From a virus (taxonomy: Duplodnaviria; Heunggongvirae; Uroviricota; Caudoviricetes), in IMG/VR virus record IMGVR_UViG_2778261064_000023: a stretch of 12,643 nucleotides of DNA; one strand, written 5' to 3'. Positions 1 through 3,163 of the stretch are shown here, one piece after another. Below the pieces are notes generated by a model. It was not told the DNA's origin and did not search any database. It worked only from the letters and a program-made list of their open reading frames with translations. A program made the translations under genes and the position numbers. The first letter of the stretch is position 1. Each line of letters begins with the position of its first letter.

Positions 1-1239
1 ATGAGCAGGGCAATTCATAGACTTAGCGACACTCTTTTACGAAAATTAAGCGGATCACCAACCACAAAAAACGCCTTTTTTAATGACGGTGGCAATCTTA
101 GCGTAAGACATTCCACCAGCGGCCTGTTAACCTGGTATTTCACTTACAGGGCTGGAACTGGTAGGCAGGTATCACCGGAACGTCTGAGACTGGGCAATTA
201 TCCCGATCTGAGCCTGAAAGCAGCCAGGGAAAAAGCGGCACAGTGTCGCGCCTGGCTGGCTGAGGGGAAAAATCCGCGCTATGAACTTAATCATGCTGTA
301 CAGGACGCGTTAGCCCCCGTGACGGTTAAGGAAGCGCTCACTTACTGGCTTGAATCGTACGCAAAGGAAAAGCGCACTGACTACGAATCACTGAAAAGCC
401 GGATCAATAAACACATAATCAGCCAGATTGGCGCTATGCCACTGGAAAAATGCGAGCTACGGCACTGGTTGGCATGTTTTGACCAGATGGCAAAGCGAAG
501 CCCAGTATCTGCCGGATTTTTGCTACAGGTATGTAAACAGGCGCTTAAGTACTGCCGAAAACGACGATACGCAATCAGCAACGTTCTTGATGATATGGTT
601 GTCGGTGATGTGGGAAAAAAAGCAGAAGTGAGCGAGCGCGTACTAACAAACAAGGAGCTTGGGGAATTACTCCGCGCCCTGGATAACAAAATATTCCCGC
701 CGTACTACAGCGCCCTAATTCGCCTCCTGATTGTTTTCGGATGCCGTACCACCGAGCTAAGGCGCTCAGAGGTGCAGGAGTGGGATTTTAAAGAAATGCT
801 CTGGACAGTACCGAAGGAGCACAGCAAAACGAAGGTCGCCATATTCAGGCCAATACCGGAAAGCATTTTGCCGTTCGTCACGAAGCTGGTGGAGCAGAAC
901 AGACACACGGGCTTATTGCTTGGTGAACTGAAAGGACAATCGTCGGTAGCAGAGTACGGAAGAACAGCGCACAGACGAATTAATCAAGCACCCTGGACGT
1001 TACACGATATCCGGCACACATTTACAACCATGCTGAACGATTTAGGCGTGGATCCGCATATTGTCGAGCAGCTTACAGCCCACCAGATGCCAGGGATGCA
1101 ACGAGTCTATAACCACTCCCGCTATCTTGATGCAAAACGTGATGCTCTTAATCTATGGGTAGACCGTCTCGAGCTTCTCCAGAACAATGATGAAAAAATC
1201 GTTGTTATGACCCCGCGAATTTACACCCAAAATTCTTGA
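1..1239 (+). CDS. int: Tyrosine-type site-specific integrase (P4-like, with N-terminal arm-binding domain)
   Basis: 412-aa ORF; N-terminal region (LTWYFTYRAGTGRQVSPERLRLGNYPDLSLKAAREKAAQ) resembles P4-family integrase arm-binding domains; C-terminal catalytic signature LHDIRHT ... VYNHSRY (His-x-x-Arg and terminal Tyr nucleophile). The ATG is at window position 1, so the true start could lie upstream. Confidence 0.9.
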   Translation: MSRAIHRLSDTLLRKLSGSPTTKNAFFNDGGNLSVRHSTSGLLTWYFTYRAGTGRQVSPERLRLGNYPDLSLKAAREKAAQCRAWLAEGKNPRYELNHAVQDALAPVTVKEALTYWLESYAKEKRTDYESLKSRINKHIISQIGAMPLEKCELRHWLACFDQMAKRSPVSAGFLLQVCKQALKYCRKRRYAISNVLDDMVVGDVGKKAEVSERVLTNKELGELLRALDNKIFPPYYSALIRLLIVFGCRTTELRRSEVQEWDFKEMLWTVPKEHSKTKVAIFRPIPESILPFVTKLVEQNRHTGLLLGELKGQSSVAEYGRTAHRRINQAPWTLHDIRHTFTTMLNDLGVDPHIVEQLTAHQMPGMQRVYNHSRYLDAKRDALNLWVDRLELLQNNDEKIVVMTPRIYTQNS

Positions 1240-1657: not shown

Positions 1658-1867
1658 ATGCGTGAAATAAATGAAGATCGCGTAATCCGTGAGGATGAAT
1701 GTCGTAAGTTAACTGGAGTGTGCCGCACTACACGCTACGAACTGGAGAAAAAAGGGCGATTTCCGTCACGCCTTAATCTGGGCGGTCGTTCTGTAGGTTG
1801 GCTGCTGTCCGAGGTTATGGAATGGGTTAAAAGCCGGGATCGCATTAATTCAGGCAAGGCAGCGTAA
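1658..1867 (+). CDS. alpA: AlpA-family (P4 Vis-like) HTH transcriptional regulator / excision activator
   Basis: 69-aa product MREINEDRVIREDECRKLTGVCRTTRYELEKKGRFPSRLNLGGRSVGWLLSEVMEWVKSR matches the AlpA/MerR-like prophage regulator pattern (HTH followed by ..G.RSVGW...E...W); the six-frame ORF begins at 1571 but the internal ATG at 1658 gives a typical AlpA length. Confidence 0.85.
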   Translation: MREINEDRVIREDECRKLTGVCRTTRYELEKKGRFPSRLNLGGRSVGWLLSEVMEWVKSRDRINSGKAA

Positions 1868-2047
1868 AGGGGAGTATATGGCACATAAAACAAAGGCGAC
1901 CGGGGGCGGTCGCCAGTGGGAAAACACTAAACATAAGCCCGAACATCATAGCGATTTGCTGGCTGGTGGGCAATCTGTCAGGTTTGCACCAATGACTCTA
2001 GGTTTAACCGAGGGTCATTATGGTGAATATGCTGGCTTGCTGGTGGG

Positions 2048-2248
2048 CTATTCCTGCTCTTTAATATCGCTATGTCGCGATGTTTTCCAGGTATGTGGCC
2101 CTAATTTTGTGCGCCTGTACTCTTTAAGGAACGTCTCAAGGACAAACGCACACGGCGCGAATCTGTCTGATTCATGCTCGTGCGTCATATTTTTGCGACG
2201 TCTCTTCCGGGTTGGTGATGGTATTTTTGTTAACTTTTTATTGTTCAT
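2048..2248 (-). CDS. Hypothetical small basic protein (66 aa, Lys/Arg-rich), transcribed divergently from the 2624-3923 operon
   Basis: ATG preceded by AGGAGG at a 5-nt spacing on the minus strand; product MNNKKLTKIPSPTRKRRRKN...; no recognisable family. A 35-codon ORF (2304-2411, minus) lies just upstream. Confidence 0.3.
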   Translation of the reverse strand: MNNKKLTKIPSPTRKRRRKNMTHEHESDRFAPCAFVLETFLKEYRRTKLGPHTWKTSRHSDIKEQE

Positions 2249-2478
2249 AATGGCCTCCTGCATAGCAATGCGCCGTAGTTCCTCACACCACGGCATTGAT
2301 AGTTTTTATCCTTTAGATTCTATGCCGCGTTGCTGTAATTCTTTGCGGATTATTCGCTTTATCCAGGCTGCAAGAGAATCATCGCCGTCCTGTTGTTGTG
2401 CTTTTTCCATCTTTTCCCGTAAGTCAGGATCTAAACGGAACTGGAACGGAGGATTACCACGCCTTTCGCTTTTGTGTG

Positions 2479-2536
2479 TTGACACGTCAATTACACCTCA
2501 TGTAATGTATTTATGTGTAATTACACATTACACACA
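2479..2536 (+). promoter_or_regulatory. Sigma70-like promoter (TTGACA, 18-nt spacer, TAATGT) overlapped by three ATTACAC operator half-sites including the palindrome TGTAATTACA
   Basis: TTGACA 2479-2484; TAATGT 2503-2508; AATTACAC at 2489-2496 and 2519-2526, ATTACACA at 2528-2535; palindrome 2516-2525. Confidence 0.4.
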
Positions 2537-2553
2537 ATCAGAGCAAAAAGTAA

Positions 2554-2585
2554 AGCCCTGCAAGTGTCGGTACCACTGGCAGGGC
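2554..2585 (+). other. Imperfect hairpin (GCCCTGC ... GCAGGGC) in the leader of the 2624-3923 operon; possible attenuator, RNA element or protein-binding palindrome
   Basis: Inverted repeat read from sequence, lying between the promoter and the first start codon. Confidence 0.3.
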
Positions 2586-2623: not shown

Positions 2624-3163
2624 ATGAGAAATCATACCACACACCCGCAAGGGCGGGACTCGCACAACCTGAATAAAGCGGGTATGAAAAACCTGTTGAT
2701 CGCCACTGCCAGCCAGGGCTATGATTTACCCGCACCAGCAAAATCTGGTGCCGGGATTGGCGTCCTGGTATTTAACGAAGCGCACAACACGCGCCCTGCG
2801 TGTTTTTTTGTGCCGGATAGTCACACCTTATCAATGGTGGGCTGTATGGGGGCGGAGCAATCCGCGCCGGGTTCTTCGTTAACCGGTTACGCCAACCCTG
2901 TACAGTCCACCGCCAGCGAAATTGGCGTTTCCTGCGGTGGGTTTATTAAACCTAACGAAGAGGCTGCCAACATGGCTACTACCCCTACCCTTGTACATTC
3001 TCAAATTGCCTTTATCTGGCGCTTTATCATCTTTGGCGCGTCAGAGTCCCAAATCATCCACGTCACCGCCTGGACGGAACGCGAAGCGCGTAACCATTGC
3101 CCGTCAGGTTGTGTCGCTGTATTCGCCGCCCGTATTCGTCAGGGGGTACGCTATGTGCAATAA
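2624..3163 (+). CDS. Hypothetical protein (179 aa), first gene of a four-gene operon upstream of the primase
   Basis: ATG at 2624 preceded by GAGG at a 5-nt spacing; the ORF extends upstream to 2513 but that part overlaps the promoter/operators; stop overlaps the next start. Confidence 0.5.

Follow-up and report, generated by a model that had tools for sequence, protein, structure and literature searches.

A small ribbon-helix-helix protein and its operator-like repeats as a candidate repressor cassette ahead of the replication operon of an Escherichia coli phage satellite

In the immI region of phage P22 the small repressors Arc and Mnt control the overlapping promoters Pant and Pmnt. In this arrangement, to which the predicted geometry of the locus described here may be likened, a symmetric operator lies over a strong promoter, the promoter of the repressor gene opposes it and the repressor regulates its own synthesis. 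The locus belongs to IMG/VR virus record IMGVR_UViG_2778261064_000023, a stretch of 12,643 bp referred to throughout as the window, which is 100% identical to the chromosome of E. coli STEC383 (NZ_CP091026.1), adjoins cspD/yljB and is a phage satellite of ~12 kb of the type of the phage-inducible chromosomal islands (PICIs). The PICIs of Gram-negative bacteria are widespread and carry virulence and defence genes; they have been described as 'transcribed unidirectionally and rightward' (PMC6092414), and for the zone between alpA and icd a later survey gives RNA repressors only (PMC10111431). In the literature searched, which did not cover all journals, we found no paper on a ribbon-helix-helix (RHH) regulator in these islands or on the function of the YlcI/YnfO/DUF3950 proteins. 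Since these islands are described as being without a known repressor, the minus-strand RHH gene considered here, which has its counterpart in the model island EcCICFT073, is a concrete candidate for a quiescence factor.

Our principal reading is that this 59-codon gene encodes a repressor of the Arc/Mnt type, whose operator cassette would guard the rightward operon comprising an isrK/seqA-like RNA, a C4/CI-like RNA, icd and the primase gene; on the comparative evidence set out below we give it a probability of about two in three. The gene itself is real, and in more than 70 islands it is kept by strong purifying selection. Scanning one genome per species yielded 72 loci with the RHH gene, in genera that include Escherichia/Shigella, Pantoea, Serratia, Xenorhabdus, Providencia, Citrobacter, Klebsiella, Erwinia, Gilliamella/Frischella and Pasteurellaceae. 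The 112 homologues of the protein are nearly all 59 aa long with a common N-terminus, M/V-S-T-H-K, and across 33 window-type loci the synonymous sites of the gene are saturated (median pS 0.80 vs pN 0.16). Its Shine-Dalgarno sequence has an equivalent, GGTG or GAGTG, at the same spot in a 40-locus alignment. At least one flanking homologue is detectable in 44 of 70 RHH loci: AlpA lies past the RHH stop on the opposite strand in 34 and int in 23, and a primase, DUF4222 or 87-aa homologue is divergent from the RHH gene in 26. DNA resembling the gene and its repeats is found in 614 of 5,426 complete E. coli genomes and, by tblastn, in 4 of 50,697 phage records, none of which is P4. The cassette occurs also on the 95-kb E. 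coli plasmid p95_MLI108-3 (NZ_CP117003.1, 4997-7900), where RHH gene, operator repeats and leader hairpins are all present beside fragments of insertion sequences; the genes that follow directly downstream are a hypothetical gene, a WYL/BrxR regulator and a BREX system.

The initial annotation of this region proposed a repressor/anti-repressor switch made of two small basic open reading frames (ORFs), and had named beforehand their conservation in related islands as one of the points on which the idea should be judged; the 59-aa gene and the repeats are indeed kept in more than 70 islands. The ORF that it delimited as 35 codons (2304-2411) is merely the 3' part, encoding the C-terminal tail, of the 59-codon frame 2306-2485 annotated by PGAP, and its product is not notably rich in Lys/Arg. 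The description as basic does fit the other frame, here called orf66, which is present with its AGGAGG ribosome-binding site and 17 Lys/Arg in 66 residues.

The assignment of the 59-aa protein to the RHH class draws on similarities of sequence and of predicted structure. PHROG 228, 'Arc-like repressor', matches it with E=2e-6, and the NCBIfam profile YlcI_YnfO_N (NF041551) matches its strand and first helix at 20.1 bits (E=5e-4), short of the curated cut-off of 30 bits. In an hhalign comparison the segment N-P-P-F-Q-F-R-L falls in register on the Arc strand M-P-Q-F-N-L-R-W, the pairwise E-value of 0.0018 being marginal. The AF2 model (pLDDT 79) contains two helices, 20-33 and 38-52 (pLDDT >90), joined by the turn D-G-D-D-S and preceded by an extended segment, 11-19; the N-terminal strand is not formed, as expected for a monomer. 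RHH domains account for 17 of the 18 Foldseek matches in the PDB (rmsd 0.7-1.7 A), among them NikR, VapB, CopA_SO, ParB-pCXC100, ParD2, Arc and MazE9, and the helix pair superimposes on the RHH domains of NikR, Arc, CopA, ParD, VapB and MazE with an rmsd of 0.7-0.9 A. As modelled, the protein would possess the beta-alpha-alpha module of ~45 residues with a G-containing turn that characterises the RHH fold; we regard the fold as supported and the assignment to a curated sequence family as tentative.

Upstream of the gene lie the repeats to which the initial annotation had drawn attention. The TGTAATTACA palindrome forms the centre of a longer and perfect one of 16 bp, ATGTGTAATTACACAT (2513-2528), a 16-mer expected 0.06 times, and ATTACAC occurs at 2490, 2520 and 2527 with an inverted copy at 2515-2521, such that four of the five copies in the window fall in 44 bp, the expectation for the whole window being 1.4. 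These elements can be resolved into three operator-like sites, A, M and B (Table 1). In 40 window-type loci from many genera TTGACAC, ATTACAC, GTAATGT and TTTATGTGT-(n)ATGACACATTAC are conserved to at least 95%, whereas the next 10-15 nt flanking them are scrambled; within site B the palindrome varies in its central 4 nt and keeps its arms, ATGTGT/ACACAT, without change. Comparative evidence thus supports the view that the repeats of 2474-2533 behave as operators of the RHH protein. A weak copy of the palindrome, ATATTTAATTACACCT (9228-9243, 3 mismatches), which holds the fifth ATTACAC, is found upstream of the minus-strand terS region and may be due to chance.

A further argument for linking the repeats to the RHH protein comes from islands in which both have been exchanged. 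In E. coli SA53-3 and VL40 int/alpA are 98-100% identical to those of the window and the leader is the same, yet in place of window positions 2300-2545 these islands have a non-homologous RHH gene, also for a protein of 59 aa, with triple palindromes of its own (GTGTCCGACAC in SA53-3; GTGTT[C/T]AACAC in VL40), which occupy the spacer and the +1 position of TTGACG-18-TAATAT; the promoter palindrome of VL40 reads GTGTTCAACAC. The RHH proteins of these two islands and of EcCICFT073, the sister type, are named YlcI/YnfO by PGAP. EcCICFT073 carries on its minus strand a 59-aa YlcI/YnfO gene (C_RS30120) and a 57-aa homologue of orf66 (C_RS30800), and has GTGGGCCACAC repeated on a TTGACG-18-TATAGT promoter. 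In STEC308, RHH gene and repeats are identical to those of the window and AlpA is only 43% identical. From the swaps and from STEC308 it follows that the repeats travel with the RHH gene and not with AlpA; gene and operators form an exchangeable specificity cassette. The interval 2250-2300, which separates the end of the RHH gene from the beginning of orf66 and marks the left edge of the swapped cassette, is near-invariant in the window, SA53-3, VL40, S. flexneri and CFT073, though the flanking ORFs diverge, and holds an 8-bp stem, GCCGUGGU...ACUACGGC.

A similar correspondence between protein and repeats is apparent within the families. A second protein subgroup (group 2), which keeps the leader hairpin, has the strand GKGNKQIALRV vs RRGNPPFQFRL in the window type, and its repeats differ likewise (CAAGTGT-CAT-ACACTTG; GTGTCnGACAC), being set within a clearer promoter, TTGACA-17-TATAGT/TAGAGT/TATTTT. 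Among 80 IMG/VR loci of the sister cassette the palindromes keep fixed distances to the start codon (~24, 69 and 94 nt), and their bases vary with the strand: QT[VIL]AARV is paired with GTGTTnAACAC (46 loci), QALKARV with GTGGGCCACAC (15 loci), KKLEARV with GTGGCTGACAC (10 loci) and K[RK][IF]D[AV]RV with GTGTCnGACAC (7 loci). A strand that reads the bases would be expected to leave such a pattern. Together with the invariance of the operators in the 40 window-type loci, this covariation may be taken as an indirect sign of a dimer sheet inserted in the major groove of the operator half-sites.

How the putative operators relate to transcription depends on the position of two predicted promoters. 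The -35 hexamer of the rightward one, TTGACA, is invariant and overlaps the GTG start of the RHH gene, being the reverse complement of the TG of the start codon, the Ser2 codon TCA and an A. Although six Ser codons are possible, Ser2 is encoded by TCA in 39/42 and 17/23 loci, which points to a constraint beyond coding that keeps TTGACA on the opposite strand. At the equivalent place sister cassettes have TTGACA/G-17/18-TATAGT, TAGAGT or TAATAT, where the spacer and the +1 position each carry a palindrome. The promoter of the RHH gene must lie in 2486-2554, because a terminator-like minus-strand hairpin occupies 2555-2585. The earlier statement that the repeats overlap a plus-strand promoter leading into the replication genes is borne out, for a predicted promoter, by comparison between loci; that of divergence holds for the genes, which point apart, and not for the predicted promoters, which face each other and do not stand back to back. 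On these predictions the palindrome would cover both transcription starts, and each promoter would sit in the leader of the other.

The rightward leader contains two conserved stem-loops separated by the invariant TCTAACCA (2587-2594). In 38 loci 10 of the 12 pairs of the first are changed on both sides, and 3 of the 5 pairs of the second show double changes (CGTTA/TAACG, CATTA/TAATG, TCTTA/TAAGA) with 92% of cells paired; for both together 87% of cells are paired and 13 of 17 pairs doubly changed, a level reached by 0 of 500 shuffles.

Beyond the leader the operon opens with an RNA immunity unit of the P4/P1 type that the initial annotation had overlooked, namely an isrK RNA and a C4 RNA followed by icd; C4 has been equated with P4 CI, and isrK with P4 seqA (PMC10111431). 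The C4-family RNA follows its target repeat and precedes icd: two sequences are complementary to its loop UCUUCGUU (2873-2880), namely AACGAAGA (2954-2961) in the Shine-Dalgarno region of icd and AACGAAG inside isrK (2775-2781), which is the target arrangement of P1 c4 and P4 CI. None of ant, eps, sid, delta and psu is annotated downstream, where the genes are those of a hypothetical protein, DUF4222 and the DUF927 primase. A fixed association of the RHH module with these RNAs was considered and rejected, as Rfam finds them in only one of 40 other loci (L073); since the RNAs rarely accompany the RHH gene, the island combines two separable locks, one of protein and one of RNA. The long ORF that begins at ATG 2624 starts like the uninterrupted icd-like ORF of EcCICFT073 and ends with an icd-like domain, and the isrK-C4 block looks like an insertion within such an ORF.

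The mechanism that we propose, from binding and promoter activity to the direction of regulation and induction, is read from these sequence comparisons. A dimer or higher oligomer of the RHH protein would bind the GTGT...ACAC-centred repeats of 2474-2533, which would overlie a strong rightward promoter, the presumed counterpart of P4 PLE and P1 P51, from its -35 through spacer and -10 to its start, and at the same time the -10 and start of the leftward promoter of the RHH gene itself. The rightward promoter would drive, in order, the two-stem-loop leader, the isrK/seqA-like RNA, the C4/CI-like RNA, icd, DUF4222 and the DUF927 primase, so that the bound protein would both shut this operon and limit its own synthesis. 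Were the protein absent or titrated, the rightward promoter would fire and silence the RHH promoter by occlusion or collision, which should make the response switch-like, and after transcription the C4 RNA would lock icd and the replication genes a second time. One possible route to induction would be AlpA-driven read-through from alpA, antisense across orf66 and the RHH gene.

In this scheme orf66 has no central place. Its product is matched by phrog_21027 (E=5.6e-31) over residues 17-82 of a longer version, and this coverage indicates the ATG preceded by AGGAGG as the start; the 82-aa version from ATG 2296 was rejected, given that its N-terminal extension is frameshifted in SA53-3 and lies outside the PHROG profile, which spans residues 17-82 only. 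Its 8 protein clusters are all from E. coli, its dN/dS is ~0.3, a 6-nt indel relative to SA53-3, VL40 and S. flexneri is in frame, and it is annotated in SA53-3 and CFT073. The AF2 model (pLDDT 62) is a single helix of no recognisable fold, and Pfam and PADLOC scans of both small ORFs returned nothing. orf66 is a real accessory gene confined to the E. coli/Shigella lineage and lies outside the core switch; it is predicted to be co-transcribed behind the RHH gene, in a unit that would stop at the terminator of 1895-1914. In other lineages the place behind the RHH gene is taken by a small lipoprotein or a second RHH gene or is empty, and in seven of the loci it appears as a variable cargo position, with a ~50-aa lipoprotein-like ORF (signal peptide plus Cys) or a second RHH paralogue. 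Because orf66 is so restricted and stays in place with either RHH type, EcCICFT073 included, it is a poor candidate for a dedicated anti-repressor. Of the switch first suggested for entry into the replication operon, the part that stands is thus a repressor-type RHH gene with its operators, on comparative evidence; of an anti-repressor there is no sign, orf66 being lineage-restricted, of no recognisable fold and not swapped.

The same properties of orf66 argue against a toxin-antitoxin pair of type II, in which the palindromes would serve the RHH protein for autoregulation and would overlap the rightward promoter only incidentally. The order of an antitoxin-like RHH gene before a small basic ORF, and the palindromes of the promoter region, would suit such a pair, as would the weak, below-cut-off match to a VapB-antitoxin profile of NCBIfam (E=0.0099), the VapB, ParD, MazE and CopA antitoxin domains among the Foldseek matches, and the label HicB-like given by JGI to some homologues. 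Yet a conserved toxin is not what the 70 loci contain: the downstream gene is variable or absent, orf66 is missing from every locus outside E. coli/Shigella and stays the same when a non-homologous RHH gene is swapped in, the RHH protein has no C-terminal toxin-binding extension, and PADLOC, Pfam and NCBIfam yield no toxin match, so that we regard this possibility as very improbable. A different view is that the repeats bind AlpA or a factor of the helper phage or host, the role of the RHH protein being unrelated or purely autoregulatory. AlpA is the sole regulator of Gram-negative PICIs shown by experiment and activates downstream genes (PMC6092414), and the RHH family has no characterised member in the literature searched. 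However, islands with 100% identical AlpA have different repeats and different RHH proteins (L001 vs L002), one with AlpA 43% identical has identical repeats and an identical RHH protein (L003), the strand residues follow the palindrome bases in the 80 sister loci, and sites in the spacer and at +1 suit repression, not activation; we hold this alternative to be distinctly unlikely.

It is also conceivable, though unlikely, that the RHH protein binds the repeats and regulates only itself and the cargo gene, with a non-functional rightward TTGACA and an operon expressed by read-through from the alpA promoter alone. The published model has one AlpA-dependent rightward transcription unit, and no plus-strand terminator was found between alpA and the operon. 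Against this, the choice of Ser codon keeps TTGACA in ~90% of loci, sister cassettes carry near-consensus, operator-bracketed promoters there, and P4 PLE, P1 P51 and Gifsy-1 PisrK are real promoters directly upstream of seqA/C4-type RNAs (see also PMC10111431). Several results nonetheless weigh against a repressor of the rightward operon and should be set beside our reading. The window-type rightward promoter combines an 18-nt spacer with a weak -10, TAATGT, a feature that suits pure autoregulation, and a promoter scan called neither promoter, both -10 boxes being weak and the rightward one matching at 3/6 positions. Induction of EcCICFT073 has been explained by AlpA alone (PMC6092414), from which it would follow that the RHH protein might just autoregulate. 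As to the fold, the Pfam scan of the 59-aa protein gave no match and all NCBIfam matches are below cut-off, a PDB profile search with the RHH alignment returned nothing significant, and the Foldseek E-values all exceed 0.9, non-significant, as is usual for 40-residue domains. Finally, the clean covariation of strand and operator was measured on the sister type, the window type relying on invariance and on the contrast with group 2.

The repressor cassette thus interpreted is embedded in an island whose layout corresponds to that of EcCICFT073 and to published descriptions of Gram-negative PICIs (PMC6092414, PMC10111431). The marks of this type are int and alpA together at an end of the element, a module with primase and replication genes, one or more packaging genes, a size of ~10-15 kb and a chromosomal attachment site, and the window agrees with them (Table 1). 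With respect to annotation, the 'ash family' pseudogene call covers the two RNA genes isrK and C4, and the RHH gene, whose annotated GTG start is correct, deserves a regulator name. A 237-aa plus-strand ORF, 1878-2591, is probably spurious, having no family match and overlying two conserved minus-strand genes; in VL40 a fragment at its position bears the label 'Icd-like' pseudogene, which is probably an annotation echo. Between int and alpA eight of the related loci carry the Rfam 'int-alpA RNA' (RF02996), of which the window has none at the Rfam gathering score.

Table 1. Positions of annotated and predicted features in the window; operator and promoter functions are putative.
Feature	Position	Strand	Details and source
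Tyrosine integrase (int)	1-1239		RefSeq
AlpA-type helix-turn-helix protein (alpA)	1658-1867		RefSeq; Pfam Phage_AlpA E=2e-16
Predicted intrinsic terminator of RHH-orf66 unit	1895-1914	-	8-bp stem, 7 GC pairs, T run; fold z = -4.1; just before alpA end
orf66	2048-2248	-	ATG 2246-2248, stop 2048-2050; AGGAGG 2254-2259, 5 nt upstream
59-aa RHH (Arc/Mnt-like) protein gene, candidate repressor	2306-2485	-	GTG start 2483-2485; RefSeq 'hypothetical protein' WP_077170361.1
Operator-like site A	2474-2485		GTGT-N4-ACAC over -35 hexamer and RHH start codon; columns at least 95% conserved (40 group-1, i.e. window-type, loci)
Predicted rightward sigma-70 promoter	2479-2508	+	-35 TTGACA 2479-2484, 18-nt spacer, -10 TAATGT 2503-2508, start ~2515
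Operator-like site M	2490-2508		ATTACA-N5-TGTAAT inverted repeat; spacer/-10 of rightward promoter, RHH 5' leader
Shine-Dalgarno sequence of RHH gene	2494-2499	-	GAGGTG, 9 nt upstream of GTG
Operator-like site B	2513-2533		Palindrome ATGTGTAATTACACAT plus extra ATTACAC heptad; over both predicted transcription starts
'ash family' pseudogene, then icd-like protein	2513-2941 (pseudogene)		PGAP/RefSeq
Predicted RHH promoter	2525-2554	-	-35 TTTACT 2549-2554, 18 nt, -10 TAATGT 2525-2530, start ~2518; from sequence and alignment
Conserved stem-loop of rightward leader	2555-2585		Reads as minus-strand terminator just upstream of RHH promoter
Second conserved stem-loop	2599-2615	+	CGATA...TATCG; beside Shine-Dalgarno sequence of first rightward ORF (ATG 2624)
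isrK-family RNA (P4 seqA relative) with terminator	2732-2808	+	Rfam RF01394, 80 bits, E=3e-16
C4 antisense RNA (P1 C4/P4 CI family)	2830-2917	+	Rfam RF01695, 75 bits, E=1.4e-13
icd-like gene	2972-3163	+	NCBIfam NF033153 E=2e-16
DUF4222, DUF927 primase, SSB, ProQ/FinO, PerC, DUF1441			Other RefSeq features
Small terminase (terS)		-	RefSeq

For the biology of these satellites the RHH/operator cassette accounts for the mosaic, 'immunity-like' region between alpA and icd. On a wider and more tentative view, which we think rather less likely to be right than wrong, the 59-aa RHH proteins of the window type, group 2 and the YlcI/YnfO type might be the missing master repressors of Gram-negative PICIs: swappable cassettes would define immunity groups among near-identical satellites, induction would override the repressor through helper-phage factors or AlpA-driven antisense read-through, and the cassette would serve as a portable controller of cargo, such as BREX on p95_MLI108-3.

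Set against the known systems, the locus resembles immI of P22 in its small (53-82 aa) candidate RHH repressor with an N-terminal strand of the type P-x-F-x-[FL]-R; it differs in that the window has no ant gene, the operon presumably controlled comprises RNA immunity, icd and replication genes, the operators are of the form GTGT-N4-ACAC and the element is a satellite, not a phage. With immI of P1 it shares the sequence of an isrK/seqA-like RNA, an RNA of the C4/CI family and icd, arranged as in P1, as well as a C4 loop complementary to the icd Shine-Dalgarno sequence, whereas protein control of P51 is exerted by C1 at Op51 and not by an RHH protein, and ant is again lacking in the window. As in P4, the operon runs on into the primase gene, but P4 has no RHH homologue by the tblastn search of phage records described above. 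Stl and Rpr of the Gram-positive PICIs (SaPIs) are comparable in that a repressor gene, at the int-proximal end, is divergent from the excision/replication operon and has a proposed role in quiescence; they are, however, large helix-turn-helix proteins unrelated to RHH and are relieved by helper-phage proteins, and Gram-negative PICIs additionally use the activator AlpA (PMC6092414). The P2/186 switch likewise has two promoters that face each other a short way apart, the lytic one bearing the repressor sites, so that, if the geometry predicted here is correct, mutual exclusion of RNA polymerase would be expected; there the repressors C and CI are of the helix-turn-helix type and a second regulator, Cox or Apl, takes part, no counterpart of which was identified in the window. 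To the YlcI/YnfO family (NF041551, DUF3950) of small prophage proteins the sister cassettes belong by their PGAP name, whereas the window protein scores below its cut-off. The control exerted at this locus would accordingly be of a kind already known, an Arc/Mnt-style repressor/operator cassette apparently combined with an RNA immunity in the style of P4 and P1.

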